A stretch of 64,000 nucleotides of DNA from Clostridia bacterium (GCA_017468205.1 JAFUJK010000013.1:2020-66019), one strand, 5' to 3'. Shown: positions 1,439 to 31,245, counted from the first letter of the stretch. The notes: generated by a model from the sequence alone, not told the origin. A program made the numbers and translations.

Positions 1439-1526
1439 AATTTGACTTCTTTGTTGTTGCCTTTGGAATATGCCCGAACTTTTTACATTTACTTGTAGAT
1501 AAATTATGAACGGGGGAGTTATCCTT

Positions 1527-4500
1527 ATGTCAAATTCAGTAAAAATTACAATAGCGATTGTTGTGGCAGTACTTGTGATAGCGAGTATTGTAGGTTTAAT
1601 ATTTGTTCTAACACCCGCATCAAAGCCGAACAACTCGCTTACTCAAAGGTTAGCAACCCCAGAAAACGTGAGGATTAATGAAGAAAACTGGGTGTTGAGT
1701 TTTGATAGCGTGGAAAATGCGCAAGGCTATCGCATTTATATCAATGACGCGGACACCTTTGTCTCGACCTCAACTAGCGTATCAGTTCAAAGTTATATTA
1801 CAAGATACGCAAAATATTCGTTTGAAGTTAGTGCTATTCACTCAACTCCTGACTATAACTCGGCTCGTAGTGCTCCTGTTTATGGATACAATACGACCAC
1901 ACTTTCGACACCTCTAAACCTTACGTGGGAAGGCGAGGAATTGTCGTGGCTTGCAGTTGAAAATGCATCAAGTTATTCTGTTATGCTTACTTATAAGCCA
2001 GATGGCTCTAATAATGAAATGACTACAAACATTTTAACCCACGGCAACACTTTTGACTTTGGTGCATTGCTTACACAAGCGCCATATTCGCAAATAAACT
2101 TCTTTGAACTCGCTGTAAAGGCAAGTTCAACTGATGCCTATGGCAACGAAAATGACTATATTTATGATAGCGCTTACAGCGACCCTGCGATTTATTTTAG
2201 AACTACATCAATTGATGCACCAACGATTAGAATAAGTCCAGACGTGAGAGGGCAAACTAGCCAGCAAGGCACAGAAAGAGTGCTTTCTTGGGACGTTGAT
2301 TTTGCAGTTGATAAATATCTAGTTTACGTAAATGGACAACTTCGCAAAACTGTTGCTAATGACGAACTTGAAGGCTTGTCATCATATAGTTTGAACCTTA
2401 ACGAAATTATGGTTGATGGTGTTTGCATTACGGATACTTTGGGCGCAAAAACAATCTTTGTAACCGCAGTTCCCAAAACTAACGACTATTATCATATTGA
2501 AAATCGTTCGAGCGACTTAATTGAATATACTGTGGTTCACACTCTTTCTGCTCCTGATGCTCAATCAATTAAAATGAGTAAGGAAGGGGAAAACCTTGTT
2601 ATTACTTGGGATACAGTTGAAGATACATATGGCGTGAATACTCGTTATACTCCAACTTCGTATAACCTCGTGTTGCTTGCAAATAGTGATATAGAAAATC
2701 CAACCTTTGTAGCGCGCGCCCCTGTAACCGAATTGCTTTTGCCTTATTACAGTATTCCACTGTCCGAACTCAGTGCCTTGGGTGTTTCATTTAAAGCAAT
2801 GATTTCTGCTGTTGAAAGTAAATCGGAATATATTTTGGATAGTGCGTATAGTGAAGAATCCGAGGCTTATGAGGCAATAACCCAACTTGAAACTCCTGAC
2901 GGCTTTGCACTTAACGAAAGCAACGGTGTTGATACATTGTCGTGGCGTGCTGTTGACAATGCAGGAAGTTATACCGTTATGGTTTATATGGGTACAATAG
3001 ATGCCGAAACTAATAACATTAATGCGATTGGTTCTGCCTTGGTAACTCAGGTTGTAACCGAAACAAAAATAACAATTTCAAATTATATGAAAGCGCACTT
3101 GCCAAACCCTCTTGGTCCAGGACTATATGCAATTCGCGTGATTGCAAATGGTGCGTCAAAATTCTACACATCATCAAATGCTAGTGAACCAGTAAAATAT
3201 GATTATAAGGTTCGTTTGACCGCTCCTGTAATTCATTCTGTGTCAAAGGTTGCTCAACTTGACAATAAGGGCGAAATTACATTCGTTTTTGATTATGTCG
3301 AGGGCGCAGAAAGATACCACATCAATGTTAACGGAATTTTGGCATTCTTGATTGACCAGCCAGCACTAGATAGTGAAATGATTTCTAGTGTTGAAGTTAA
3401 TGGCACTACATCTTATAGAATAGTTGATAAAACGCGCTTAACTGATTTTATAAATAATAACTATTCTTCACCAAAAGTGCATTCAATCACGGTTCAAGCG
3501 ATTATTCTTGACACTGAAAATGCAAATGGTTATATCAGCAGTCTTTTGTCAACAGAATATAAGTTTAGTGATTATTATACGCATCAAAAGCCAACAAATC
3601 TTGTTGCTTCTCAACAAGCAGGGCAGAATGGTGTAGTTCTAACTTGGGATAGCGTGCCAACTGTTGTTGCTGCTAACGGAACTTACGAAATCTTTGTAAT
3701 TGACGAAAACAACGGGCGCGTTGCTGTAAACACTAACGCTATCACAGGAAGCCGTGTAGCAGATTTGAGTCCTTACTTGCAACTTGGTATGAACACGATT
3801 GAAATGCGTTCTGCTCGTTCTGGTTTGTATCTTGCTAGTGATTACGTAACAACTACAATAAATTATGTTTATAACTTATCGGGAACTCTCAACACTACAA
3901 TCACTCCAATAAGTGGCTCCAAGAATAATAGACTTTTTATTGAGGCATCTAAAAATGTAGATTTCCGCTATATAACTGATTATTATGTAGAGTTTATCAA
4001 CAGCGCAGGAACTGTATTTAACAGCCTAAATATTCATACTGATGTTGCTGGTAGTGATATTGACGAAGTTATAACTGACGAATACTTACCTCTATACAAG
4101 ACGACGACAGTAAAAATTTACGCAGGTAAGACTAAATCTGGTGATAACATAATTAGTCAGAGCGTACATCTTAATTCTGATGGCTGTGAGTGGAGTTTGG
4201 ACTATGAAAGCAGTTCGTTTATGGACAGCCCTACAATCTCGCATAGCGAAACAGTAGTTGATTCTAAACCAAAGGTTTACGCAACGATTAATGTTTCAAA
4301 GGATTCACTTCCTTTTACAAAGAGCATTGAATGGACATTTGAAGGTACAACTGGTATAACTTATACAAGTTACATTGATATTACTGACACCACAACAAAT
4401 AGTTTTACAATTGATTTGACAGCATTGCAACTTGTAAATGATGATGAAAATGCCCTTTTAGGTGGTGGATACAATATCACTGCAACCGCTATTTCAAACA

Positions 4501-7500
4501 AATCTAGCGAATTGCGTTCAAGTCCAGCACAATATGCATTTGATATTATCATCGACCTTCAAGCACCTGCGGGCTTTGTTATGGCTGACGACCATTCATA
4601 TTTGCAATGGAATTATATTGCTTTTGTTGACCACTATGAGATAACGATGAACGGCGCAACAAAGTCTACAACTGTTAGTGAGTATACTGATTATGTTGAT
4701 GGCAAATATGTGCGTGTAATGCGTGCAAATACTACTGGCTGGTTCAGTGGGCTAAGCAAAGGCGCAAGTGTGGTATTTGGTGTTAAAGCGGTTGCACAAG
4801 CCAATGGATACTATCGTGATAGTAGTGCAGTTTACACTTGGGAATTTAACAATAGAATTTCCGCGCCACTTGTAGAAGTTGTTACTAAAAACAATCAACT
4901 CCACCTCCAAATTCTTTACAGCAAATTAGTTTCTAATTATTCAATTAGTTGTGAAGAATCAAGCGCAGGAGTTAGTGTAAATGCGACCGCTAATATTGTT
5001 GAAAACGGTTACGTTTACTTCAACCTTGAAAATGTGCTTGCGGATAAAGTGGCAGGTGAATATGGATTTAGTGTTGTTGCTAATCCACTTGATGCTTCAA
5101 CTTATAACACAAGCGACCCAACAGTTGTTAATGTTGAATGGCAAAAGCGTTTTGCTCAACCAAACATTACCGTAGCGCAGAATTTTGATAACAACACACT
5201 TTCATTTACTTGGAGTGATGTTAGTGTAGATGTGCTTGCAAATGGACAATTGACAAGAGTTGCGCCAAGTGGCTATCTTGTTACAATTACACAAGCATCA
5301 AGAACGGATAGTGTATATTCTCAAACATTGACAACAAATACACTTACATTAACCTCAACAGAACTTGCTTCTATGACAAGTGGTTACTACTTCGTAAGTG
5401 TTACAGCACTTGAAAATGCTCCGATGTTAGAAAGTTATGAAAGTGCATATCGCTTTGCTTATCAACAACAACTTCAAACTCCAATCATAGCCTTTGTTGC
5501 AGGTGATAGCCTAGCAAACGAGAATACTCTTGACGTACAGCAAACAAGCACACCTGATGCAAATGCTCCAAAATTTGACCTTAAAGTTATCAATTCAGCA
5601 AATGAAGAGAAGATTTTTGAGGGGATTGCTTGGAGTGGAAACGTAGCAACACTTCAAGGTGGTACGCACTTTGCCGAGCGCGGTTCTTATACCATTGCTA
5701 TTCGCAATGCACAGAACGGAAGTTTGGCTGCGAGTGCGTGGAGTAATTCTCTTGTAATTCGTTACGGCACTTCGTTTGATGTGGCTGAAAACATTACAAT
5801 GACTTATGACGACCCAACAACAACATATACTGTGAACTTTGACAAATTAGAATTGCCAAGTGAATTGACGGGTGAGGTAACATATACTGCAAGCGTAACT
5901 TACAACAATATTAAGCAAGCCATCACAAGCGACCAAATTACACTTGTTGCGGATAGTACATATTCATTTAGTTTCCAAAACGCGCAATGGGGTGATGCGT
6001 GGGCGGAAGGTTCGAGATTTACAATTGTGATTACAGCAAACACTACAGACGAACTTTACACTACGAGTAGCACAACCTATGTATTTGCTATCGGTGATAT
6101 GGTTGCACCATACGACATTGTGTTTACTGCTGATGGTGCAGATGCAACAATTACTTGGAAAGGTGATACACAATATGTCGGTGTTGTATATACCTATTCA
6201 ATCTATGTTGTTGACGCAAACGGCTCAAATTTATATCTTGCAAACGATGGTTCTTGGACAGCAGATAATGCTAATCAAGCAACATTGACAACGACAACAA
6301 CCGAAATTGCCTTTACTCTGCCAAGCGCACAAGTTTATGCAATTTACTTTACAATAATAGCAAGTGTTACAAACGGAGTTGACTCTGTTGCAAGTGCACC
6401 TCATACACACATCTTTATGAACACGCAAACACTTGCTGGGGTAAATGACTTTGCAGTTAATTATGATAAGACAACACAAACTTACACTGCAATTTGGACA
6501 AATAATCTTCAAAATTCAACCGCTTTCAATGGTGGCGCTTACACTCTTAAAATAAATGGAACTACTGTTCTCAATTCAAGTGTGGAAAGTGGCTCAATAG
6601 TTAGTGTTGACATTACGTCATTTGTTCCAACATTCCTTGCAAGCGGACGAATTGCATACTGGGAGATTACTGCAAGTGATGTTGTTTATACTGTTGGTGA
6701 ATCAAACTACATTGCTTATAAGGGTGGTGTATATGCTAACAGCCTTGAACTCCCAATCGTTATTAGCGATGCCCCAAACACTTTAGTTCTTGACGGGACT
6801 GTTGCAAAATGGAGTTATGTGGTGAATGCTACAAAATATAAACTCTACATCGCAGACAGCACAGGCATGCCACTCAACTTTGAGAACGGCTCTGCTCGCG
6901 AGATTGTAACAAATCAAAACACCTATGACTTCTCTGGACTTCTTGCTGGTTTGGAAGCAGGGGACTATCTCGTGGTTGTTCAAGTTGAGGAGGACGAGGC
7001 AAACGGCGTTTATGTAAGCGAAGATTTGGAAAAAACAACAGCAACATATCTACAAACTGCTCCATTAAACGCAATTACTGATTTGACATTTGAACAAAAT
7101 TACGTTGGTGGACAGGTTAGAACATATGCTAGATGGAATTACAACACAAACGGCGACTTTACGATTGAAAATATGAAGTTTAGCATTACAATTACCGATA
7201 AAAATGGTAAATCAGTTGCATACGACAATCTCAACCCAGCATTAAGTGGTACAAAGTTTACTTATTCTAACAGCGCAGGCGACACAACAAAAGGCTCATT
7301 CGTGTTTAGTTATATTGACCGCTCTGCTGACGATTTGACTGTTGACCTTGCAGGTGGCGAATGTGTGTTCACGGTCGTTGTAAGCGGTGTTGACGGAAGT
7401 GCATATTTCACTGCTTCAAACGGTGTGAGTGGCAACTTCAACAATATTTTTGGACTACAAGCAATCACTAACGACAACCTCTTTGCTGTTGCACCTGAAT

Positions 7501-10500
7501 GTTTCATTAAGGGTGTTGCGTACAACGAAATTGCAGGCTATGAGGAAGGTTTGAGAGATGACTTCGAAGAGTATGAAAGTACAATCGGCTTCAACGAAAA
7601 ATATCTCATAATAACAGATGACACGCTTTCATTTGCTCAATACTTCAAAGTGTATATCTCAACAACAACCGATGGTAACGGCGCAAATATTTACGAATAT
7701 GTCGGCGATATTAAGAATGAAGCAACAGAAATTAGTTTTGATGCAATTTCTAACACAACCGCAAAATTGCGCCTTCCAACAGCAATCGCTGGAATTAATA
7801 AGATTAAACTTATTCCATATGGCGAAGAAGAATACTACAAATATATTGATGGAGGCACTGTTTATGACTTGTCTTCTGATGTGGCTATCGAGAAAATTTC
7901 AAGCGAGTTCGATGTTGAGTTGTTTATGAGAAATGAGGCTCCAAACCTCAATATTCACTCTATAAAATTGGGCTATTCTGACAGCCAAGACAAGAAGAAT
8001 ATTAATTCTGTAAATCTTACATTTAGCAACCTTAAAATAGGCGGAATTTATCGAGTTACACCATACTACTATGACTATTACAACAATGGCGCGCTTGTTG
8101 AATGCGAGCCAACGGACATTGGACCTCTAACCGCAGACGACTTTAACGGAAGTGTCCCAAAAGGTCTTGACATCTACGACTTGATTAGTTTCTACGGTCC
8201 TCATCAATTCTACTTTACTGTGCAGTCTATCGTGCCACAAGGCGAGGGCTCAAACTACTGGCTCAACAGCCACATTTCAACAACTCCTAATAGTTTTGAA
8301 TTTGTTACAAAATTGATGGAATTTGCGCCAATACTTGATGGTGATAGTTCAGTCAACAGCCTTGTAAACCCAATTACAGTTAAAAATGCAGGTGGCACGC
8401 TTGAAAATGGCGACTTGTATTGGACTTTGCCAACACACCCATATAGTGTTCGTATAATCTACACTGTTACTTTGTGTGATGAAAACCAAACTTTGGGTAG
8501 CATTATGCAGTTTGGCGAGAAACATATCATTAAATATAGCGTAGTGCTTGATGTGATTGTTACAAAGGACAGCATTACATATCAAATTGGTGAGCAAAGT
8601 ATGCTCAAACAAAATGTAACGTCAACAATAACCGACGGATTTGTGCTTGACACGGATAATGGTATTTTAGTATTTGATATGACAAAATATTTTGAGGATA
8701 GCACTCGTGTTGCCGACAATCAAAATGGTGCTTGGTACTTGGCGGGAAGTTATACTTATATGATTACTGCTGATGTGTTTGCTATAAGTGAGCCATATAA
8801 TTGCACTAGGATTTCTAGTCCAGCATCATTTGGAACAGAAAGCGCAATGAATAAGTACAATTATACAAACATTCCATTCCCATATCAGCCTACAAACGTT
8901 CGCCTGAGCGAGAACGGCGACTTAACTTGGGACTATGCGGACAAAATCTACGACTCTGCATATCTTGATACTGCAATATTTGAAATTTGGGTGTATAACT
9001 GGGACGATGCTCACGAGAACTATACTATATCAAAACTCGATGACTATGTCTACGGTACAGTTGTAACTAACATTAGCCACTTGTTGACCGCTGGTGGTGC
9101 AAAGAGAAATGAGGTTGTTATCCGTACAGTTAGCCCTGATATTAACATCTATGAGCCTAGTGAATGGGTGAGTGTAAACGCAGGTGCATTACCTACAACA
9201 ACTGCCCTTCCAAACATTAGTGTAGTTTGGGGTAATGACGAAACACTCAAAAATAACGACCACCGCGTAGTTGCAATTACTCTTGACAATTACGTAAGTA
9301 ACGCAATTCTTGCAGACGTTGAAGCAAACAATTTTGATGTGCATATTAACGTTCACTTGCTCAAAGTTATTGATTGGGCACAGGGTAGCCCAGAACCAAC
9401 TTATGCTAACTATGATGAGGCAAGAGAAAGTGGCGACTATCCAACAATCAGTTGGAACCAGCCACTCACCGAACAATATTATAATTATATTACCTATAAG
9501 AACCACGAAGGTCTTGACTACAAATTTAATTTTGTAAACGCTATCAATGCACTTGTTAGTGCTGGATTAGAAAGCGAAACTTTGTGGCTTATTGGTGGCG
9601 ACTCTCTCGCTGGTGGGTACTACTATCTTAAAGTAGAACTCACAACAGGTCTTACTTGCTACTCTCCAAGCGTGGTTTATCAGTCAAAACTTGTTCGCGA
9701 AGTTTGGCGCAGTAGTCAAGAACAGGCAACTATAACTGGTCAACACCTTACTACAAAAACATTAGGTGTTGCAGCCGAGCCTGTGAACGGAAATGATAGA
9801 GAATGGGGAGCCGATGCTCACAAAGAAGCATTGCTTACAATCCCAGTTGACACGATTGACTACCGCATCGACGAGAATACGATTGCACCAAAACTTCCTT
9901 CTGAAATTACCGTTTACGCACGACTCTACACAGGAGTTGGCTATGATGCAGACCACAGTTATTCAATCACTTACTCAATACCTGATGTAAGTTTGATTAC
10001 TGGCGGAAAATATCAAAATGGCGACATAACTTTGTCAATGATTACTGATAATGATTATAGCCGTATTAATGTTACAATCGATATTCACGCTTTATTTGAT
10101 AAGAATATTTACGCGGGAGTATATGACATCTTCTGGGTGCTTAACGGCGACCAAGTCGGCGACAGCAGTCCAGTAGAAGCGCCATATCAGTTGCGTGAAG
10201 AAATTTGCCACTATGTAGTTTTCCCAACACCAATACTTGACTATCGTTTGGGCTACACTGGCACAAATAGCGACCAGTACGTAATTAACTGGGTTCTTAC
10301 TCCAAATAAATATACTCACGAAGTTAACGACACAATTGATTATAACATCAATTTGTATGCGTTCGTTGCTGATGAAAATGGTAACTTTGCAACTGATGAC
10401 GCGGAGGCAAATGACCCTAACTTCTTGAAAGCATCAAGTCAAGAAAAATATTTTGTTGGGAATGCAAATGCAAGCGGAACAACTTTAGAAAATTACAGCA

Positions 10501-13500
10501 ATATTCAAGTGCTTAATGGCAGAGATTGTTATATTCAACAAAATACAATCGCAGGATTTAGTTTGACACCAAACAAGACTTACAAAGTTTATATGTATCT
10601 TTCAACCTCTCGTTGGGGTGAAACTGATGATATGAATGCGTTCTATTACTTGAATAGTGATACTTCTGTTGGTGTTGAATACGTGTACAAGAAGATTTCA
10701 GGTCAGCACGTTGCTGATGATGTAGAGTCTCCAACAGCGGATTATCCATTAGAAAGATTTACCGCCAGTGATAGAGAAGTTGTTGAAAATGGTGCTTATT
10801 ACACATTTACATCAACTCAACCAGATTACAACAACAATGCACTTGAATTATTCGTGTACAACACGCAAGACCCTCGTGCTGGGTACGATGAACATTGGAC
10901 TGATGCACAAGAGAATGACGGCACATATCTTGCTCACTTCATTATCGGTACAAAGGATAATGCAAGTGCAAAGAACGGAAGACAAGACTTGTATATCTTG
11001 TATGACTACGAGGATAAAGTTGTCAACTCTGGAACTTGGGACTATTCGCGCTCGGTTGGATTTATGTCGGGCAAAAATATCACAATCAACAAACTCACTA
11101 TTAGCGAATTGCTTTATAATAAGGTAACCCAAGTTGCTGGACTCGACCTCAATAAAATGTGGACACCAATCACATATTATTGCAAAATCCAATCTTGGAT
11201 AAACAATAACGAAGTAAACAAGAATATGCCAACATATCTTGGTACGGACAACGTTGTAAGATACAAGGATAAGGATACAGTATTTGGCAGAGAATGGATT
11301 AAGAAACACATAGATTTCGTTCGCAATGAGGACGGAAGCATCAATTCAGAAGCGGTAGAGAAGTTGTATAACGATTTGCTTGAAGACAACAAGGTGTTCG
11401 ATGTTCCATACTTGAATGCAAACGCGTTAAATCTTGAATACTATTTCACATTCCAGCACACAATCCAATATGCAATGCCATATTTGTCTAGTGAAAATGG
11501 AATTGAAATTGTAAACAAGGACGGCACAAGTGATTATGTTGATTACTCAACAATCGACCTTGGCAATGGCGTGTTGCAATATAAGACTGATGGATATGTT
11601 AAGGCTACTTCAAACTTTAACTATTACTATCGCATTTGGCTTAACGACTTATATACAACTGACCCACTCATTAGAAGTGATAAGGAAATTAATGTAACCG
11701 TAAGTGCTACATTCTATGACGATACTACGGGTGGCTCGGGTAACTATGGCGACTATAACAATAGCCAATGGGGAACTTTTGATTCTGTAAACTTGTTTAT
11801 TCATTATGTTGATGAAGACAATGAGGATTTGAGCGCTGAATTTATCGCCGCGCACAAAGGACAAGCTTACATTGAATTAAAGTTTGATAGCCCAGAAAGT
11901 GGGGCGAGCGCGTTATATACCGCTATGGACCAATGGCTTCCTAACATCTTTACGTTTGAGTTTAGAGCGGTAACTAGTGGCAGTCCTGTGATTAACACGG
12001 GTGAAACAAATACTACAAATGCGTTTGTAACTTACAATAATGTAACTGGTGAAGTTAATTCTACAAAGAACGTGATTTCACGTATATATGCAGAGTCTAA
12101 CTCATCAGAACACCCAAATTATTTGACCGTTCGCAAGCAATACACCGCTCCAACAGTTGATTTAAGATTTGACTCAATGCAGACATCGCTTTCTGAATTT
12201 GGTGAAATGCAATCAATAAAGTTAGGTGAAACTTATTACACGACAAACCTTGTTGAAGAACTTACAAATTCAGACTATGTAGGACTTGCAAGTAACCCTT
12301 ATCTATTCTCAACAGCGGAGGCTTTGGATAGAACGGGCGGTCAAGCCTTTGAGTATGGTATGCTGAAAACTGATAAGCGTACACATTATGAAATCAAGTT
12401 GTACTACAAGGATGATAACGGAAATATTCTGAATACTTCAAATGTGATTAGTTTGCTTACAAATGACGTAAACAACACGCTCACACGCTTTACACAAGCC
12501 GTAAAAGGGCTTGATGTGGATTCAGCACGTTTTGACTATTCAAAATATAAAGATATCTATCCATACGAAGAAACTTGCTTGTACGAAGCAATGTATAGCC
12601 TTATCAATGGCGACCTCAAAACTGGCGCATATAAGGGCGGAAGAATTGATATTGACATTCGCGTTGTAACACCAAGCGAGGATAGAACGGACAAAAACAA
12701 TCAAAATTGGGTTACAAGTGCGTGGGCAAGTGCTGAACGAGCAGAATTATATACGTTCTATTTCCACCCTCGACTTGAAACCGTTGTAACTTCATTCAAT
12801 CAAAATGAATGTAACTTTACAACAGATTATGAGGGCGGTACATCTTCGTTCTATGTGCAAGACGGAAAGTATTATTACCACCAATCTTACGTTCCTTTGC
12901 ACTACACATCAATTAGTCGTACTGCACAATACTATGTATATCTGTCTCGTACACAGGGCGGAAGTGGTTATATTAATATGCCTTATAACATAAATAACTC
13001 TGTTGTAAGAGATTATTGTACACTTTCACCTCGTAACACTGATACAAAGAATACAAAGAACCTCGTTGATATCCTAAAACACGACCTAGTAGATGCTAAA
13101 ACTTATGATTCAAGTTCTTCTTCTGCCCACGCTAACCAATGGAGATTGCCAGAAAACGTAAATGATACGTGGCTTATCAACATTGTTGCAGCAGTTGGCG
13201 ATGATATGACTTATGTTGGTCGCGGATTTAATAGTAAAGACCAAAACTATACTGTTAAACTCAAAATCAAGATGGACATTCAATCACTTTCAATTGATAT
13301 GGAACCACTTGTAAACAAGTCAACAAATGTGCTTAATGAAAATTCATTCACTGCAACAACATTGAAAAATGGCTATGCAGGTAGTGCTTTGTGGAAAAAT
13401 TACAGCACTTCACAAGATTTAACTGGACAGGCTTTCAACAGGGCGGCTAACAAGGCGGTATTTAAATACTACTATCCTTATGGCAACACTATGAAAGCAA

Positions 13501-15233
13501 CAGGTACTTATACAATCGGCGATACTGACAATAGATACTACAAACTCTTCTATGACTTTATCAAAGGTTCACTTATGAGCGACCTCAACATTCGTGCTTC
13601 TGACGGATTTAGGGTTAACGTAATGTTCAAGTTTAATGATGGCACTTATGCAAGCGAGAATGTTGTCGATAGTGCATACTCCGTTGACTTGTATCTAAAT
13701 TACTATCGTAACTTGCCGTTTGATACAAGTAAAATTGTGTTCACACAAGATAGTAGCGGAATTAAAATGAACGCAAACTATTCAGTACACAACCAGTTTG
13801 CTGCATTGAATGTAACTATTGACCAATATGACTATTCAAATGGAAATAATTATACTTCAACCGCTATATACACTTCTAATAGTACAAGCGGAAGTACCAA
13901 GAACTATGTGGCTAAGGCAAGTTTTGATTACGATTATGCTGATTGTTTCAGTACAAAATCAATCCCAGCCGATGTTATTAGAAAAATGATAAATAACGGA
14001 TACACGCAGTACACGGGTTATGCACAAGGTGGTATGAACTACTTTACAATTACCCCTGTTCATGACGGATATGCAAAAGACCACAATTTGCTTGCGTATG
14101 GAACAAAGTATAATGACGATGTCGACTATACTGTTCGCATTAACCCAACTGTTTCAATATCTTACGACGAGGGTATGCATAATGACGAAAACACTGTAAT
14201 TTCTGACTCGTGGATTTGGGACCACTCATCAACAACTAATTCATATATTGAAAAAGAGTTGATTATGGATGAGTATTGGGGATATATTGAAAATATTACT
14301 GCTGATTATAGTTATATGAATGGCGCAACGGTAGAAGTTTATTATGCTTATGGCTTAACTATTGAAAATCCTGCTCACGTTGTTGATATCGTATCGGGTA
14401 CATCAACAAAAGCAATGACTTCATTTGGCTCGGGACAATATAATGATGTTGAAATTGAAATTCGAGTTTATTGTAAAGAAGGATTTGAAAGTGTGTTCGC
14501 GCGTTCAAGTGACAGCGATAGCATAGATATAAAACCGGGTAGCGATGTGCAAGAATATGTTCCTGTAAGAAAAGATTACTCTGAAAAGACAAATATATTA
14601 AGTTATGTTGAGCTTGAAGTTACTGACGGCTGGATGGGTGGCGGTAGTGTCGCTGATTATGTTGGAAGTATATTTAAAGGTGGTAATCGTGATGCTAGAT
14701 GTACTGTTTCATACGATACTAGTGAGTTACCAAGTGGATTTAGTTTCAATATTGATGTAAGCGCTAGATATAGAGTATCTTATTCTGAAAATGTAGCAGA
14801 AGAGGGAGAAGAAGAAAATATTAAAACTATTTATAGAACTGGTAATTTGAGCGGTAATACTACAATTTCAACAGGCGGTTCTGGTTCATTTAGACTTACA
14901 GGTCATTATTGGGAAACGGATGCTTACAAATGTCTTGCTTCGTTTAGCGATTTTGAAGGTGGAAGTGCCTCTATGAGTAATAGCACTTTTGAACGTGGTG
15001 CAGGTGCAACCGCAGGTGCAACAACTCCTTGTGTAACTTGTGGTGGTGACGGAAAAGTGGAAAGTGCTCACAAAGGTTCAAAAGTAATAACCATAACAGA
15101 TACCTATTACAAATGTTCTTGTGGTGAAACTATTGATGGTACTATTTGGGACGGCGATACAAAAACATGGGGTACTGGTTGTCCAAAACATTTGGCAGAT
15201 TGCTCTTCTTGTAATGGAACGGGATATATATAA
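1527..15233 (+). CDS. Giant (~4,570 aa) N-terminally membrane-anchored protein with FN3-like repeats and a C-terminal Cys-rich zinc-finger-like tail
   Basis: Single uninterrupted ORF 1506..15233. The ATG at 1527 is preferred because GGGGGAG lies 8 nt upstream. There is a hydrophobic anchor, ITIAIVVAVLVIASIVGLIFVL. Many ~90-100 aa modules have the pattern [LI]xxP...W...Y.[VI], e.g. LSTPLNLTWEGEELSWLAVENASSYSVMLTY. The last ~70 aa hold 7 Cys, including two CxxCxGxG motifs. Confidence 0.85.
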   Translation: MSNSVKITIAIVVAVLVIASIVGLIFVLTPASKPNNSLTQRLATPENVRINEENWVLSFDSVENAQGYRIYINDADTFVSTSTSVSVQSYITRYAKYSFEVSAIHSTPDYNSARSAPVYGYNTTTLSTPLNLTWEGEELSWLAVENASSYSVMLTYKPDGSNNEMTTNILTHGNTFDFGALLTQAPYSQINFFELAVKASSTDAYGNENDYIYDSAYSDPAIYFRTTSIDAPTIRISPDVRGQTSQQGTERVLSWDVDFAVDKYLVYVNGQLRKTVANDELEGLSSYSLNLNEIMVDGVCITDTLGAKTIFVTAVPKTNDYYHIENRSSDLIEYTVVHTLSAPDAQSIKMSKEGENLVITWDTVEDTYGVNTRYTPTSYNLVLLANSDIENPTFVARAPVTELLLPYYSIPLSELSALGVSFKAMISAVESKSEYILDSAYSEESEAYEAITQLETPDGFALNESNGVDTLSWRAVDNAGSYTVMVYMGTIDAETNNINAIGSALVTQVVTETKITISNYMKAHLPNPLGPGLYAIRVIANGASKFYTSSNASEPVKYDYKVRLTAPVIHSVSKVAQLDNKGEITFVFDYVEGAERYHINVNGILAFLIDQPALDSEMISSVEVNGTTSYRIVDKTRLTDFINNNYSSPKVHSITVQAIILDTENANGYISSLLSTEYKFSDYYTHQKPTNLVASQQAGQNGVVLTWDSVPTVVAANGTYEIFVIDENNGRVAVNTNAITGSRVADLSPYLQLGMNTIEMRSARSGLYLASDYVTTTINYVYNLSGTLNTTITPISGSKNNRLFIEASKNVDFRYITDYYVEFINSAGTVFNSLNIHTDVAGSDIDEVITDEYLPLYKTTTVKIYAGKTKSGDNIISQSVHLNSDGCEWSLDYESSSFMDSPTISHSETVVDSKPKVYATINVSKDSLPFTKSIEWTFEGTTGITYTSYIDITDTTTNSFTIDLTALQLVNDDENALLGGGYNITATAISNKSSELRSSPAQYAFDIIIDLQAPAGFVMADDHSYLQWNYIAFVDHYEITMNGATKSTTVSEYTDYVDGKYVRVMRANTTGWFSGLSKGASVVFGVKAVAQANGYYRDSSAVYTWEFNNRISAPLVEVVTKNNQLHLQILYSKLVSNYSISCEESSAGVSVNATANIVENGYVYFNLENVLADKVAGEYGFSVVANPLDASTYNTSDPTVVNVEWQKRFAQPNITVAQNFDNNTLSFTWSDVSVDVLANGQLTRVAPSGYLVTITQASRTDSVYSQTLTTNTLTLTSTELASMTSGYYFVSVTALENAPMLESYESAYRFAYQQQLQTPIIAFVAGDSLANENTLDVQQTSTPDANAPKFDLKVINSANEEKIFEGIAWSGNVATLQGGTHFAERGSYTIAIRNAQNGSLAASAWSNSLVIRYGTSFDVAENITMTYDDPTTTYTVNFDKLELPSELTGEVTYTASVTYNNIKQAITSDQITLVADSTYSFSFQNAQWGDAWAEGSRFTIVITANTTDELYTTSSTTYVFAIGDMVAPYDIVFTADGADATITWKGDTQYVGVVYTYSIYVVDANGSNLYLANDGSWTADNANQATLTTTTTEIAFTLPSAQVYAIYFTIIASVTNGVDSVASAPHTHIFMNTQTLAGVNDFAVNYDKTTQTYTAIWTNNLQNSTAFNGGAYTLKINGTTVLNSSVESGSIVSVDITSFVPTFLASGRIAYWEITASDVVYTVGESNYIAYKGGVYANSLELPIVISDAPNTLVLDGTVAKWSYVVNATKYKLYIADSTGMPLNFENGSAREIVTNQNTYDFSGLLAGLEAGDYLVVVQVEEDEANGVYVSEDLEKTTATYLQTAPLNAITDLTFEQNYVGGQVRTYARWNYNTNGDFTIENMKFSITITDKNGKSVAYDNLNPALSGTKFTYSNSAGDTTKGSFVFSYIDRSADDLTVDLAGGECVFTVVVSGVDGSAYFTASNGVSGNFNNIFGLQAITNDNLFAVAPECFIKGVAYNEIAGYEEGLRDDFEEYESTIGFNEKYLIITDDTLSFAQYFKVYISTTTDGNGANIYEYVGDIKNEATEISFDAISNTTAKLRLPTAIAGINKIKLIPYGEEEYYKYIDGGTVYDLSSDVAIEKISSEFDVELFMRNEAPNLNIHSIKLGYSDSQDKKNINSVNLTFSNLKIGGIYRVTPYYYDYYNNGALVECEPTDIGPLTADDFNGSVPKGLDIYDLISFYGPHQFYFTVQSIVPQGEGSNYWLNSHISTTPNSFEFVTKLMEFAPILDGDSSVNSLVNPITVKNAGGTLENGDLYWTLPTHPYSVRIIYTVTLCDENQTLGSIMQFGEKHIIKYSVVLDVIVTKDSITYQIGEQSMLKQNVTSTITDGFVLDTDNGILVFDMTKYFEDSTRVADNQNGAWYLAGSYTYMITADVFAISEPYNCTRISSPASFGTESAMNKYNYTNIPFPYQPTNVRLSENGDLTWDYADKIYDSAYLDTAIFEIWVYNWDDAHENYTISKLDDYVYGTVVTNISHLLTAGGAKRNEVVIRTVSPDINIYEPSEWVSVNAGALPTTTALPNISVVWGNDETLKNNDHRVVAITLDNYVSNAILADVEANNFDVHINVHLLKVIDWAQGSPEPTYANYDEARESGDYPTISWNQPLTEQYYNYITYKNHEGLDYKFNFVNAINALVSAGLESETLWLIGGDSLAGGYYYLKVELTTGLTCYSPSVVYQSKLVREVWRSSQEQATITGQHLTTKTLGVAAEPVNGNDREWGADAHKEALLTIPVDTIDYRIDENTIAPKLPSEITVYARLYTGVGYDADHSYSITYSIPDVSLITGGKYQNGDITLSMITDNDYSRINVTIDIHALFDKNIYAGVYDIFWVLNGDQVGDSSPVEAPYQLREEICHYVVFPTPILDYRLGYTGTNSDQYVINWVLTPNKYTHEVNDTIDYNINLYAFVADENGNFATDDAEANDPNFLKASSQEKYFVGNANASGTTLENYSNIQVLNGRDCYIQQNTIAGFSLTPNKTYKVYMYLSTSRWGETDDMNAFYYLNSDTSVGVEYVYKKISGQHVADDVESPTADYPLERFTASDREVVENGAYYTFTSTQPDYNNNALELFVYNTQDPRAGYDEHWTDAQENDGTYLAHFIIGTKDNASAKNGRQDLYILYDYEDKVVNSGTWDYSRSVGFMSGKNITINKLTISELLYNKVTQVAGLDLNKMWTPITYYCKIQSWINNNEVNKNMPTYLGTDNVVRYKDKDTVFGREWIKKHIDFVRNEDGSINSEAVEKLYNDLLEDNKVFDVPYLNANALNLEYYFTFQHTIQYAMPYLSSENGIEIVNKDGTSDYVDYSTIDLGNGVLQYKTDGYVKATSNFNYYYRIWLNDLYTTDPLIRSDKEINVTVSATFYDDTTGGSGNYGDYNNSQWGTFDSVNLFIHYVDEDNEDLSAEFIAAHKGQAYIELKFDSPESGASALYTAMDQWLPNIFTFEFRAVTSGSPVINTGETNTTNAFVTYNNVTGEVNSTKNVISRIYAESNSSEHPNYLTVRKQYTAPTVDLRFDSMQTSLSEFGEMQSIKLGETYYTTNLVEELTNSDYVGLASNPYLFSTAEALDRTGGQAFEYGMLKTDKRTHYEIKLYYKDDNGNILNTSNVISLLTNDVNNTLTRFTQAVKGLDVDSARFDYSKYKDIYPYEETCLYEAMYSLINGDLKTGAYKGGRIDIDIRVVTPSEDRTDKNNQNWVTSAWASAERAELYTFYFHPRLETVVTSFNQNECNFTTDYEGGTSSFYVQDGKYYYHQSYVPLHYTSISRTAQYYVYLSRTQGGSGYINMPYNINNSVVRDYCTLSPRNTDTKNTKNLVDILKHDLVDAKTYDSSSSSAHANQWRLPENVNDTWLINIVAAVGDDMTYVGRGFNSKDQNYTVKLKIKMDIQSLSIDMEPLVNKSTNVLNENSFTATTLKNGYAGSALWKNYSTSQDLTGQAFNRAANKAVFKYYYPYGNTMKATGTYTIGDTDNRYYKLFYDFIKGSLMSDLNIRASDGFRVNVMFKFNDGTYASENVVDSAYSVDLYLNYYRNLPFDTSKIVFTQDSSGIKMNANYSVHNQFAALNVTIDQYDYSNGNNYTSTAIYTSNSTSGSTKNYVAKASFDYDYADCFSTKSIPADVIRKMINNGYTQYTGYAQGGMNYFTITPVHDGYAKDHNLLAYGTKYNDDVDYTVRINPTVSISYDEGMHNDENTVISDSWIWDHSSTTNSYIEKELIMDEYWGYIENITADYSYMNGATVEVYYAYGLTIENPAHVVDIVSGTSTKAMTSFGSGQYNDVEIEIRVYCKEGFESVFARSSDSDSIDIKPGSDVQEYVPVRKDYSEKTNILSYVELEVTDGWMGGGSVADYVGSIFKGGNRDARCTVSYDTSELPSGFSFNIDVSARYRVSYSENVAEEGEEENIKTIYRTGNLSGNTTISTGGSGSFRLTGHYWETDAYKCLASFSDFEGGSASMSNSTFERGAGATAGATTPCVTCGGDGKVESAHKGSKVITITDTYYKCSCGETIDGTIWDGDTKTWGTGCPKHLADCSSCNGTGYI

Positions 15234-15399: not shown

Positions 15400-15435
15400 A
15401 TCCCAGTATTATTAATATTTATTATTATTCTGCGT

Positions 15436-15604
15436 GTCATTGCGAGGTACCCGTGAGGGCAACGTGGCAATCTCGGCAATTTTATTGCCGTCACGAAGAA
15501 TGTTCTTTTTCAAAAGGCGAGATTGCCACGTCAACACTTTGTGTTTCCTCGCAATGACAAGTAATTTAATTGTTAAGTCGCTTCGCTCATTGTGGCAATC
15601 TCGC
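15436..15604. repeat. Cluster of three copies (forward, inverted, partial) of a dispersed intergenic repeat GTCATTGCGAGG-N(15-20)-CGTGGCAATCTCGCC
   Basis: Unit A is 15436..15476, forward. Unit B is 15516..15558 and is its reverse complement (ggcgagattgccacg...cctcgcaatgac). The 3' half-unit gtggcaatctcgc is at 15592..15604. Further copies are at 24695..24763 and 29344..29386. Confidence 0.8.
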
Positions 15605-23189: not shown

Positions 23190-23214
23190 AAAACGAGATT
23201 TTTATCTCGTTTTT
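23190..23214 (+). terminator. Rho-independent terminator
   Basis: AAAACGAGAT-tttt-ATCTCGTTTT is a perfect 10 bp stem followed by a T run. Confidence 0.75.
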
Positions 23215-23339
23215 ATATTTTTGTAAAAGTGAATCTGTAAAAAATAAAATTTATCCTATTTTTGTTAGTAAATTTAATTAATTTGTGTTATAATATTGTT
23301 ATAAAAAATGAAAAAAGTGGAGGAAGTTTATGCAAAATA

Positions 23340-24602
23340 ATGAAAATTCCACCCCAAAAATCCCGCAGGGGGGGGGGGGCGCTAAATAGCGAAAAAATTG
23401 TTGAAAAACGCGTTAAAATCGCGGTTTTTAGCGTTTTTTTAACCCTAGTAATTGCCTCAATTGTAATGATTATATGGTTCTTTTTCCCAAGTGTGAAAGG
23501 TGCGCCTGAACAGATAGCGGGTGTAACTTTGGGAGTGGAACCTGCGGAAGGAGGATACATTATAGTTGAAGGGGTTATTATGGAAGCTGGATATTATAGT
23601 ACTTCCACATTTAGATTTGGATTCGATATAATAAGTGCTATGCCTAATGATGGTTATGCTTTTGTGAAATGGATTTATACTGTAAGTGGACCAGCTGAAT
23701 ATGAATCAACATCTCAATCTATGACGATGGATGAATATACGTTTGAATATATTGCTTACTTTGAGCAAATAAGTTTTAATGTAGGGGTTGCTACGAGTGA
23801 TACTTCCATGGGGGCTGTATCTGGTGGTGGTGTATATTCCTATGACGCAACGGAAAGCGCGACAATTACAGCGACACCAAGCGCAGGCTATGCCTTTTCG
23901 CATTGGTTGAATAGCGCGGGGGATATTGTTTCTACAAGCGCAATTTATACATTCACTGTTACAGCAACTGATACATATACAGCAGTATTTAGAGAGTACG
24001 CGCTATCAATTACAACAAATAATAGTGGTAGTGAAATTTCAAGCCAAAAGATTGATGAATTAAACACAATGACTACATATGCTCTTACTTTTACTACTGG
24101 TAAATACTTGTCTCAAATTCAGTTTAATAATGGTTCATTGCGCGATATAAAATATAATAGTGGAACATTTGGTGATGTTGAAGGCTGTACGGCTGTAACA
24201 TATTACGCAAATTCAAGTGGCTCGGAGTTGATTTTAAATGTGTACAATTACAATGGTGCACTAGATTTAGAAATTAAATTGTATTTTGTTAATACTGCAC
24301 AATCTTTGAAACAACCTAGCGGAAGCATTGAAACTACGGCTGTAAATGCTACTAATGGCGGGGAAGTCCGTTTGACTGGCTCGGATTTAATTGGTGAAAG
24401 CGATACGGTTGTATGTATTGCGGTACCTTATGCTGGCTATGTGTTTGACGGCTGGACAGACAGCGATGGAAACAATCTTGGCACTGATTTAAGTTTGCGT
24501 TTGACGAAGGAGCAAGTTCAAGGAAAAATTATAACAGCAAACTTTTCATTAAGCGGTACTAACGTAAATACTAATGTTAGTGATTTTGATAGTTTATCAT
24601 AA
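23340..24602 (+). CDS. Surface protein paralog 1: signal-anchor plus divergent InlB B-repeat-like domains, with a G12 tract in the 5' coding region
   Basis: Coordinates give the uninterrupted frame as sequenced. The SD-proximal ATG is at 23330 and is out of frame at G12. The TM anchor is IAVFSVFLTLVIASIVMIIWFFF. Repeated G.VSGGG.Y....A.ITA.P..GY.F..W modules match the divergent InlB B-repeat as I recall it. Confidence 0.7.
   Translation: MKIPPQKSRRGGGALNSEKIVEKRVKIAVFSVFLTLVIASIVMIIWFFFPSVKGAPEQIAGVTLGVEPAEGGYIIVEGVIMEAGYYSTSTFRFGFDIISAMPNDGYAFVKWIYTVSGPAEYESTSQSMTMDEYTFEYIAYFEQISFNVGVATSDTSMGAVSGGGVYSYDATESATITATPSAGYAFSHWLNSAGDIVSTSAIYTFTVTATDTYTAVFREYALSITTNNSGSEISSQKIDELNTMTTYALTFTTGKYLSQIQFNNGSLRDIKYNSGTFGDVEGCTAVTYYANSSGSELILNVYNYNGALDLEIKLYFVNTAQSLKQPSGSIETTAVNATNGGEVRLTGSDLIGESDTVVCIAVPYAGYVFDGWTDSDGNNLGTDLSLRLTKEQVQGKIITANFSLSGTNVNTNVSDFDSLS
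23368..23379 (+). repeat. G12 homopolymer (candidate slipped-strand phase-variation tract)
   Basis: 12 consecutive G counted directly, inside the first 20 codons of the gene. Confidence 0.95.
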
Positions 24603-24662: not shown

Positions 24663-24690
24663 AAAAAAGAGCATAATGCTCTTTTTTTTT
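24663..24690 (+). terminator. Rho-independent terminator
   Basis: AAGAGCA-taa-TGCTCTT followed by a T run. Confidence 0.7.
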
Positions 24691-29214: not shown

Positions 29215-29343
29215 TCGTGAAATTTCACGATTTTTTTGCTATAATCGAAAAAAGATTGTATACTAAAAATATTTCAAAAATAAGTGAAAATTGTTAGTAA
29301 TTTGTCGCAAAATATGGTATAATAAGAGTAAATAAAATAGCTT

Positions 29344-29386
29344 GTCATTGCGAGGAGCGAGTTGCTTGCTCCGTGGCAATCTCGCC
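29344..29386 (+). repeat. Complete copy of the GTCATTGCGAGG...CGTGGCAATCTCGCC repeat in the 5' UTR of surface paralog 2
   Basis: gtcattgcgaggagcgagttgcttgctccgtggcaatctcgcc lies between the TGgTATAAT promoter element and the GGAGG SD. Confidence 0.85.
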
Positions 29387-29416
29387 TTTTAAATAATAAA
29401 AATCGGAGGAAAAACA

Positions 29417-31190
29417 ATGAAAAAAGACCATTTATCCACCCCTAAAAATCCGCAGGGGGGGGGGGGCGCTAAATAGCCAAAAAATTGTTGAAAATGGCTT
29501 AAATAAAGGCTTTTCGGACAATTTCAAAAATGAAAAAAGTTATAAAAAAGATAGTGAAATAAAACTATTTTCAATTATATTTACAAGTATTTTTTTATGC
29601 GCTTGTGTAGTAAGTGTAAGTGTATTTTTTGCTCTGTATTCAAAGGCTTTGTATGACTACAATAATACAGATTATTATATTGGCGATATGCTTAACAATA
29701 ACTCTGTGAATATTGATACATATAATACGCTGATTTCAAAAATTTCGGGTGATACGGGTGGACGTGCTTCAATTAATGGGGGAACACCGATATCATTTAA
29801 AATGGGGGACTACTATTGGCAGGTAGTGTATGTGGACCCATATAATACAGATATAGTTTCTGTTTGGATGACGGACGTTACGGAGTATAAGTCGATTTGG
29901 TATGAATCATCAGCAATAAAGGAATATTCTGAATCTGTATTATATAGCACGGTAAATACAATTTACGCTGCACAAAAAAATGCATATCCAGTTTTGGATA
30001 ATATAACAGTTTCGCAAACAAATATGAGCAGTGATTATAAGGCGAAACAAGATAGTTTGGCTGTTACTAACATAGGTTTTGATGTAGTTACCAAATCTGG
30101 GACATTATCCACTTTGACTGATAAATTTTGGGCTCCCAGCACTCACGAACTTATCACATATTGGGAAATTGATGCATCAGATATGTATGCCTCAGATACT
30201 AGTTGGTTGCGTAATTGTTTGTTTTATGGACCAGATGGTGGTGTTTATATGGCTGGCTGGGTTAGTGGTGATGGAGATATGGGTAAAGCGACCCTTCCTA
30301 ATTCAATGTATGTGCGTCCAGCGTGTCATTTATCATTGGCACAGTTAAAAAGCAATGCTTGTTTTAATGTTATAGTAAATTCTGACAATACCTCTATGGG
30401 GACAGTTTCTGGTGGTGGTGAATATTCCAATGACGGAACGGAAAGCGCGACAATTACAGCGACCCCAAGCGCAGGCTATGCTTTTTCGCATTGGTTGAAT
30501 AGTGCGGGGGATATTGTTTCTACAAGCGCAACTTATACATTCACAGTTACCGCAACTGATACATATACGGCAGTATTTAGAGAGTACGCGCTATCAATTA
30601 CAACAGATAATGGTGGAAGCGAAATATCTACTCAAAAGTTTGACCAACTTAACACTATGACTACTTACGCGCTCACTTTCACATCAGGCAATTATATATC
30701 CCAAATACAATTTAATGGTGGTACTTTACGAGATATTAAATGTAACAGCGGAACTTTCAGTGATGTGGGAGGTTGTACGGCTGTAACATATTATGCAAAT
30801 ACAAATGGCTCCGAATTAGTGTTGAATTTATATAATTATAATGGTTTACAAGATTTGGTTATAAAATTATATTTCGTTAACACAGCACAAGCACTAAAAG
30901 CACCTAGTGGTGGTGTTGAAACAACAGCGGTTTATGCTACAAATGGTGGCGAAGTGCGCCTTACTGGCTCGGACTTGGCAGATGAAAGCGACACGGTTGT
31001 GTGTATGGCGGTGGCGTATGCAGGTTATCAATTTGACGGCTGGACTGATAGCGATGGCAACAATCTTGGCACTGCTTTAAGCATTCGCCTCACAAAAGAA
31101 CAAGTTGAAGGAAAAGTCATAACTGCGAATTTTTCGCAAATTAGTACAAATGTTAATACTGAAACAAACAATACGGAAAATTTAACATAA
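29417..31190 (+). CDS. Surface protein paralog 2: DUF6273-like N-terminal domain plus InlB B-repeat-like C-terminal module, frameshifted at the G12 tract (phase-OFF as sequenced)
   Basis: ATG 29417 has GGAGG 7 nt upstream. It reads MKKDHLSTPKNPQGGGGAK and then stops at G12. The main ORF frame is open from the tract through 31190 and encodes a TM anchor (LFSIIFTSIFLCACVVSVSVFFAL), but has no ATG before the TTG at 29649. FWAPSTHELITYWE...SWLRN...VRPACHLSL resembles DUF6273. Confidence 0.65.
29455..29466 (+). repeat. G12 homopolymer (candidate phase-variation tract)
   Basis: 12 consecutive G counted directly. The flanking sequence ccgcag-G12-cgctaaatagc is identical to the tract at 23368. Confidence 0.95.
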
Positions 31191-31219: not shown

Positions 31220-31245
31220 AAAAAAGCGCAGTTGCGCTTTTTTTA
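31220..31245. terminator. Bidirectional terminator between convergent genes
   Basis: AAAAAAGCGCA-gt-TGCGCTTTTTTT. Confidence 0.7.

Follow-up and report, generated by a model that had tools for sequence, protein, structure and literature searches.

The window (the whole stretch of DNA that was analysed, 64,000 nucleotides in length, from a Clostridia metagenome-assembled genome with locus tags beginning IJ301_) contains two paralogous genes for membrane-anchored repeat proteins, each of which has a run of 12 G residues close behind its first codons (Table 1). The neighbours of both genes are housekeeping genes, i.e., aspS, an ABC-F gene, an M23 peptidase gene, trxB, glmM and a DEAD-box helicase gene. 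Terminator-like hairpins lie before and after each of the two paralogs, and the hairpin that ends the upstream SLOG/LDcluster4 gene implies that paralog 1 is its own transcription unit. Both products contain divergent domains of PF18998 (Flg_new_2, the InlB B-repeat), with E values of 1e-27 for paralog 1 and 1e-21 for paralog 2. Paralog 1 belongs to this family with a score of 96.3 bits against a gathering cut-off of 23.6 bits, distributed over three stretches of the protein, and the scores of the paralogs range from 75.8 to 99.3 bits. In both proteins the leader is followed by a hydrophobic anchor, which in paralog 1 is directly preceded by the residues EKRVK, and a conserved C-terminal module is common to the surface-protein family. 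The PF18998 domains and the N-terminal anchor suggest a product that faces the environment of the cell and is probably exposed on its surface.

Table 1. Features of paralogs 1 and 2 and their surroundings (positions counted from the first nucleotide of the window).
Feature	Position	Strand	Basis or remark
Terminator-like hairpin ending the upstream SLOG/LDcluster4 gene	23190..23213	+	terminator scan; Pfam for the gene
Promoter-like motif, paralog 1 (putative promoter)	23262..23294	+	TTGTTAGTA, 21-nt spacer, extended -10 TGTTATAAT (23286-23294)
Shine-Dalgarno (SD) GGAGG, paralog 1	23319..23323	+	6 nt 5′ of ATG 23330, 16 nt 5′ of ATG 23340
SD-proximal start and 19-codon dead-end ORF (G12 state), paralog 1	23330..23389	+	MQNNENSTPKIPQGGGGAK, then stop TAG 23387-23389
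Long ORF of paralog 1, 420 aa	23340..24602	+	public annotation (MBQ7977183.1 / IJ301_01095); InlB B-repeat (PF18998) domains
Conserved leader cassette of about 60 nt, paralog 1	23348..23407	+	TCCACCCC..CCGCA-G12-CGCTAAATAGC.AAAAAATTG.TGAAAA
G12 homopolymer, proposed hypermutable switch of paralog 1	23368..23379	+	sequence and run-length census
Dual-frame stop segment CGCTAAATAGC	23380..23390	+	one stop in each non-productive frame (TAA 23383-85, TAG 23387-89); identical in three paralogs
Hydrophobic 23-residue segment, putative signal anchor or signal peptide	23418..23486	+	translation, IAVFSVFLTLVIASIVMIIWFFF; topology predicted
Terminator-like hairpin after paralog 1	24663..24687	+	terminator scan
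Promoter-like motif, paralog 2 copy	29291..29323	+	TTGTTAGTA ... TGGTATAAT
Shine-Dalgarno GGAGG, paralog 2	29405..29409	+	7 nt 5′ of ATG 29417
SD-proximal start and 19-codon dead-end ORF (G12 state), paralog 2	29417..29476	+	MKKDHLSTPKNPQGGGGAK, then stop; same TAG as paralog 1
Open frame of paralog 2	29421..31190	+	membrane segment 29565-29639
Leader cassette, paralog 2 copy	29435..29494	+	alignment to paralogs
Second G12 tract, paralog 2	29455..29466	+	G11 in assembly L007
Terminator-like hairpin separating paralog 2 from the convergent DEAD-box helicase gene	31220..31243	.	terminator scan

Direct reading of paralog 1 bore out every element that the original prediction had placed there: the GGAGG, the well-positioned ATG 23330, the G12 run, the early stop and the second start at ATG 23340. 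The frame of the long ORF had been described as −1 relative to ATG 23330; this was a misnaming, as for a ribosome the shift is +1, the codons of the long ORF lying 1 nt downstream of those read from ATG 23330. The rule drawn from it, that the loss of one G or the gain of two fuses the two frames, is correct, as G11 and G14 both fuse them in silico. With G8, G11 or G14, paralog 1 would encode fusions of 422–424 aa from ATG 23330, beginning MQNNENSTPKIPQGG(G)ALNSEKIVEK, and with G9, G10, G12, G13 or G15 the same start would give peptides of 17–20 aa. In paralogs 1 and 2 alike, the tract lies inside the reading frame, and the gain or loss of a single G toggles between a full-length and a truncated product. 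In the frame of the long ORF there is no other ATG, GTG or TTG from the Shine-Dalgarno sequence to position 23340, which leaves ATG 23340 as the sole route into the long ORF at G12, as had been anticipated. Because this ATG, despite having no Shine-Dalgarno sequence of its own, could still yield a low-level product, the G12 state of paralog 1 is better called OFF/low, with ATG 23340 possibly giving a little full-length protein.

The situation in paralog 2 is simpler. At G12 its open frame has no start codon before TTG 29649 and, because this first start codon comes after the membrane segment, the gene is truly OFF; with G11, a 590-aa protein would be read in silico from ATG 29417. Of the two public versions of paralog 2, MBQ7977190.1 (500 aa) begins at an internal Met and the other (513 aa) at a TTG; as the gene was annotated while OFF, neither version includes the membrane anchor.

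The two tracts far exceed what chance would give. The window has a GC content of 37%, and the numbers of its G/C runs fall off smoothly up to a length of 5, after which there are none of 6–11 and two of 12. A first-order model predicts 4e-4 G/C runs of at least 12 in the window, versus the two that are observed, both of which lie inside the same conserved block in paralogous genes. The 28-mer at the tracts occurs twice in the window versus not at all in shuffled sequences. Codon choice is also atypical, GGG being the rarest glycine codon (10%), such that three GGG in a row have a probability of about 1e-3. A G12 run is a repeat of hypermutable length (for homopolymers, about 8 or more) and stands far above the background of the window.

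The conserved block that surrounds the tracts is a leader cassette of about 60 nt, which a single genome carries in at least three paralogous genes for surface proteins. Among the three copies the identity of the cassette is 93–97%, and the flanking regions align poorly. Immediately after the tract, CGCTAAATAGC carries a stop in both of the wrong frames, and therefore the OFF frames end within 2–4 codons of the tract. A promoter-like motif is also common to all three leader-bearing paralogs; the consensus promoter scan did not call this shared motif, owing to its 21-nt spacing. Two further paralogs (P0007 and P0008) were considered as possible carriers of hidden upstream tracts; they have none, and both start directly at the signal anchor.

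The third copy of the cassette is in the gene for P0003 (IJ301_03490, locus L002), on another contig of the same metagenome-assembled genome. Here the cassette is in frame (ON), and the gene has a complete ORF of 730 aa with the start MEKDLISTPKIPRGGGALNSEKI / MEKDLISTPKIPRGGGALNSEKIAEK. At the DNA level, paralog 3 reads CCGC-G12-CGCT, without an A before the tract, and is one base shorter overall. Being in frame and one base shorter, paralog 3 shows that the productive frame is the SD-proximal one (..STPKxPxGGGALNS..). The states of the cassette are thus mixed within one genome, paralog 3 being in frame and paralogs 1 and 2 being one base too long. Furthermore, as the three paralogs have A+G12, A+G12 and G12, respectively, no uniform sequencing bias puts all three in frame.

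The data in which the locus is found come from a survey of the ruminant gastrointestinal tract [see Xie et al. 2021 (PMC8199421)], and one run with the locus, SRR12529362 (“Colon-2”), is from a colon sample. In that survey, PCR-free TruSeq libraries were sequenced as NovaSeq 150-bp reads and assembled with MEGAHIT and IDBA-UD; because the libraries were PCR-free, stutter from library PCR is absent as a source of length differences. Tract lengths were taken from consensus assemblies (Table 2).

Table 2. Length of the G tract and state of the reading frame in each paralog and assembly.
Paralog	Assembly and sample	Tract	State
Paralog 1	window, NCBI MAG	G12	OFF/low
Paralog 1	L001 / L008, SAMN15829982	G12	OFF/low
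Paralog 1	L009, SAMN15829952	G12	OFF/low
Paralog 2	window, NCBI MAG	G12	OFF
Paralog 2	L001, SAMN15829982	G12	OFF
Paralog 2	L011 (Logan), SRR12529362	G12	OFF
Paralog 2	L007, SAMN15829952	G11	ON
Paralog 3	L002, SAMN15829952	G12, no preceding A	ON

Every tract except that of paralog 2 in L007 is exactly 12 G long, a uniformity that counts against a switch. The assemblies come from near-identical strains: L001 is 99.98% identical to the window across 17.5 kb, with G12 at both tracts, and L007 is 99.97% identical across 17.2 kb, from which it differs by four SNPs and one indel. This sole indel is in the tract of paralog 2, and none of the 19 A/T runs of at least 7 in the compared stretch of L007 and the window has an indel. 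The L007 gene encodes P0051, which is identical to the 590-aa ON product that had been predicted for G11. Within the sample SAMN15829952, paralog 1 has A+G12, paralog 2 has A+G11 and paralog 3 has G12; as the lengths differ by paralog, the difference is locus-specific rather than a uniform length bias. In the comparison across metagenomes that had been proposed, tract length varies at paralog 2, with G11 in L007 versus G12 in the window, L001 and L011, and not at paralog 1, which has G12 in all three of the assemblies read (window, L008, L009) and whose ON form is absent from the 90% protein cluster of its product. Paralog 3, being in frame, and paralog 2 in its G11 form both show the SD-proximal frame to be productive; this upholds the earlier view that ATG 23330 opens the productive frame of paralog 1. 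The Logan contig L011 ends 7 nt past the tract of paralog 2 (its other end lies within the M23 peptidase gene and is unremarkable in position). This end was considered as a sign of heterogeneity within the sample and was rejected, as it is not where a length bubble at k=31 breaks.

An unlikely explanation of these observations is that the frameshifts are dead ends or artefacts, i.e., that paralogs 1 and 2 are decaying pseudogenes, or that G12 is a consensus error for an in-frame G11. Long runs of G are error-prone, the single G11/G12 difference could in principle be such an error, and the Logan contig ends 7 nt past the tract; against this, assembly of three or four datasets arrived independently at the same G12, at two loci, and no uniform error model brings A+G12, A+G12 and G12 all in frame. 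Decay would be consistent with the SNPs in paralogs 1 and 2 between assemblies, four of four of which are nonsynonymous (F91L, I224M, Q123P and S234*), as expected under relaxed constraint, and one of which, S234* at position 24040 in L007, is a nonsense change. However, S234* is unreliable because it is 59 nt from the end of the contig in a region repeated among the paralogs, the ORFs past the tracts are otherwise intact for 1.2–1.7 kb, and three paralogs have conserved the leader block together with its tract and its dual stops.

It is also improbable that the G12 of paralog 1 is fixed and functional, with ATG 23340 being the true start of a 420-aa protein and ATG 23330 opening only a short leader peptide. 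The constant G12 of paralog 1 in three of three assemblies and the missing ON form in the protein collection would be expected in that case, and the N-terminus read from ATG 23340 has K/R residues ahead of its hydrophobic segment. However, ATG 23340 has no Shine-Dalgarno sequence at a suitable distance, being 16 nt from the GGAGG and 10 nt downstream of a well-placed competitor ATG, and it has no counterpart in the other paralogs. An identical G12 is found in paralog 2, where no other start is available, and the frame in which STPKxPxGGGALNS is read is productive both in paralog 3 and in paralog 2 at G11.

Recoding at G12, whether by +1 ribosomal frameshifting on GGG codons or by slippage of RNA polymerase, such that the gene is never genetically OFF, is very improbable: the homopolymer would allow tRNA-Gly to re-pair in any frame and there is conservation at the nucleotide level around the tract, yet the need for a frameshift is not conserved (paralog 3 and paralog 2 of L007 being in frame), there is no slow, rare or stop codon at the shift site or inside the tract, folding of the RNA gave z-scores of -1.5, +0.2 and -0.8 and hence no significant structure that could serve as a stimulatory element, there is no Rfam match, and transcriptional slippage has been documented mainly for A/T runs.

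The G12 tract is therefore probably a hypermutable simple-sequence repeat (SSR), acting as a translational phase-variation switch of a membrane-anchored InlB-B-repeat surface protein. The slipped-strand phase variation that was originally proposed is supported by the presence of the cassette in at least three paralogs, by their mixed states, by the G11/G12 difference at paralog 2 and by the productive SD-proximal frame. Transcription would proceed from the promoter common to the family, and ribosomes would load at the GGAGG and initiate at ATG 23330. With 11, 14 or 8 G, translation would continue past the leader (..STPKIPQGGGALNSEKIVEK..) and into the membrane segment and repeat domains (ON), whereas with 12 G (the state in the window) or 13 G the ribosomes would meet the built-in TAG or TAA 2–4 codons past the tract. 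In paralog 1 only, the weak ATG 23340 may allow a low output of full-length protein at G12. During replication, slipped-strand mispairing would add or remove single G residues, flipping each gene independently, presumably at high frequency and reversibly within a population. With at least three paralogs carrying the cassette, different combinations of the proteins could be displayed within one clonal population. The selective agent may be host immunity, phage or an adhesion niche.

A further proposal is more doubtful and can only be offered tentatively. Perhaps, the block of about 60 nt is a portable “switch cassette”, comprising leader codons, the G tract and overlapping TAA/TAG codons that close both wrong frames, which at least three paralogs have retained or acquired by copying and which gives a combinatorial, SSR-driven surface “phasome” in a Clostridia bacterium of the ruminant hindgut. 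Paralog 1 might then have three levels of output: a high one from ATG 23330, a low one from ATG 23340, and a state without product.

The distribution of the cassette appears to be narrow. The DNA pattern CGCTAAATAGCNAAAAAATTG had two matches in GTDB species genomes, both due to chance and without a tract, and the pattern GGGGGCGCTAAATAGCNAAAA had no match in JGI metagenomes and none in IMG/VR. The 64-aa post-tract leader of paralog 2 had no match among 1.84 billion representative proteins in a phmmer search, and a profile of the C-terminal module found no confirmed relative in JGI metagenomes. Neither a leader profile built from three sequences nor the first 80 aa of paralog 3 recovered anything from a word-indexed set of 5.8 billion proteins, a search which also missed the known members and is thus insensitive rather than a sign of absence. 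As far as these searches see, the cassette and the protein subfamily occur only in the ENA, NCBI and Logan assemblies of this lineage of ruminant-gut Clostridia.

Phase variation in Clostridia is known mainly from DNA inversions. In the opa genes of Neisseria, CTCTT repeats are located in the region coding for the signal peptide. The poly-C tract of the sialidase gene nanH3 of Gardnerella is near the 5′ end of the gene. In its tract, the present locus resembles the poly-G contingency loci of Campylobacter jejuni, which constitute a “phasome” [see PMC6321876, PMC8437040]. In both, long poly-G tracts are found in an AT-rich genome otherwise without G runs, they lie within the reading frames of genes for surface determinants such that changes of one base toggle the frame, and there are several loci per genome in a mixture of ON and OFF states. 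The differences are that Campylobacter jejuni is an epsilonproteobacterium and the host here belongs to the uncultured Clostridia; that its targets are mostly glycan-modifying enzymes, whereas those here are membrane-anchored repeat proteins; that the tract here is within a leader cassette of about 60 nt common to paralogs; and that the tract lengths here show less scatter.

For Gardnerella, the poly-C tract of nanH3 and homopolymers in other surface genes have been described (bioRxiv 10.1101/2020.09.16.300947; PMC11287997). As described there, a G/C homopolymer in a gene for a cell-wall or surface protein of a Gram-positive mucosal commensal changes in length to give either the full-length protein or short truncated peptides, which resembles the situation here. 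Gardnerella is an Actinobacterium, in contrast to the Clostridia host here. In the nanH3 study, variation within cultures was demonstrated by cloning and sequencing, and its abstract deals with a single gene, whereas here the variation is seen between assemblies only and the cassette is common to paralogs. The likeness to opa of Neisseria, a genus covered by repeat catalogues [see PMC5320596], is one of organization: surface proteins are encoded by a multigene family, every copy has its own repeat in the leader, and switching is independent, with combinatorial display. There is no sequence relationship, as the opa repeat is a pentanucleotide and the products are outer-membrane proteins of a Gram-negative organism. 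More generally, homopolymers in coding genes have been put forward as a switch of prokaryotes that inactivates genes reversibly, as set out in Orsi, Bowen & Wiedmann 2010 (PMC2831843), and the tract here, lying within a coding gene, follows that principle. According to PMC11287997, which cites PMC2831843, it is the A/T homopolymers that are relatively abundant in the genomes of prokaryotes; unlike these, the two G12 runs stand alone in 64 kb, and three copies are in one conserved cassette.

Thus, the tract of paralog 1 is very probably an SSR contingency locus of a known type, one of at least three that share a leader cassette. Its unusual features are the class of the host, the exactly shared cassette of about 60 nt with both wrong frames stopped, and the visibility of ON and OFF states between public metagenome assemblies. 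The best-known poly-G contingency loci are those of Campylobacter, Helicobacter and Neisseria; the present locus extends them to an uncultured bacterium of the gut Clostridia, and ON/OFF differences between animals can be detected from metagenome assemblies alone. The locus also flags a problem of annotation: paralog 1 has been given a start without a Shine-Dalgarno sequence, and paralog 2 internal starts that omit the anchor. Should the cassette prove to be a switch, its proteins would become candidates for determinants that face the host, phages or substrates and that experience fluctuating selection in the hindgut of ruminants.

Paralog 1 is called by gene callers from an ATG that has no SD (window 23340-24602; MBQ7977183.1), and paralog 2 is called from an internal start (window 29649-31190; MBQ7977190.1), giving a product of 500 or 513 aa from which the membrane anchor is missing. 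The public annotation conceals the OFF state of the proposed G-tract switch.

When assemblies were compared over about 21.7 kb, four of the seven SNP positions were located in paralogs 1 and 2, which make up ~14% of that sequence, and all four (window 23612, 24011 and 24040 in paralog 1; 30016 in paralog 2) alter the protein (F91L, I224M, S234* and Q123P). The premature stop occurs in contig L007, the start of which is 59 nt away; a strain bubble or a contig-end artefact may account for it. L007 and L009, both from sample SAMN15829952, end at one point inside paralog 1 (window about 23981-23985). As this part of paralog 1 shares 80-92% identity with paralog 2, the assembly was apparently broken there by the repeated sequence or by strain differences.

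A C-terminal module of ~100 aa (..ATNGGEVRLTGSDL..VVCMAVAYAGY.F.GWTDSDGNNLG..RLTKEQ..GK.ITANF..NVNTETNNT) is common to at least eight proteins, with 57-75% identity to the copy in paralog 1, and its conservation is far above that of the remainder of these proteins. The Pfam InlB B-repeat model (PF18998) aligns to part of the module in P0007, a related paralog lacking the G tract; inspection of the module by eye revealed no evident LPXTG motif. At the start of the window, an ORF of 4575 aa (1506-15233, +) had no Pfam match at E <= 0.01; the 474-aa ORF ahead of it (14-1438) lacked a Pfam match as well.

The 5′ UTR of paralog 2 holds, between promoter and SD, one copy of a dispersed intergenic repeat, in which TGTCATT(G/T)CGAG is followed by a variable stem-loop of ~15-60 nt and then by GTGGCAATCTCGCC. 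Copies occur in both strand orientations, and in some of them the arms covary, with ATTGC/GCAAT changing together to ATTTC/GAAAT. An Rfam search with the repeat gave no match. In appearance it resembles REP or MITE elements, and it is not confined to genes of the surface-protein family.

Locations of the upstream elements, regulator genes, C-terminal modules and intergenic repeat copies
Feature	Location	Strand	Context
TTGTTAGTA + extended -10	window 23262-23294		paralog 1
TTGTTAGTA + extended -10	window 29291-29323		paralog 2
TTGTTAGTA + extended -10	L002 4773-4805		paralog 3
XRE/HTH_31 genes	L005 5282-5617; L006 4471-4743	-	upstream of P0007/P0008
C-terminal module	window about 24300-24602		paralog 1
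C-terminal module	window about 30890-31190		paralog 2
C-terminal module	C-termini		P0003, P0006-P0008, P0011, P0013
Repeat	window 29343-29386	+	
Repeat	window 15435-15478	+	
Repeat	window about 15516-15559	-	
Repeat	L002 4847, 7259; L005 5908, 8139, 8204, 8246, 11327; L006 4316		

Common to the three leader-bearing paralogs (1, 2 and P0003, IJ301_03490, in the same MAG) is the upstream motif TTGTTAGTA, followed 21 nt on by an extended -10 element (TGnTATAAT). This gap exceeds standard -35 spacing, and the motif could be a regulator site. Directly upstream of each tract-less paralog (P0007 and P0008, which start at the signal anchor) lies a divergently transcribed XRE/HTH_31 regulator gene, which suggests that paralogs without the poly-G cassette are under conventional regulation.
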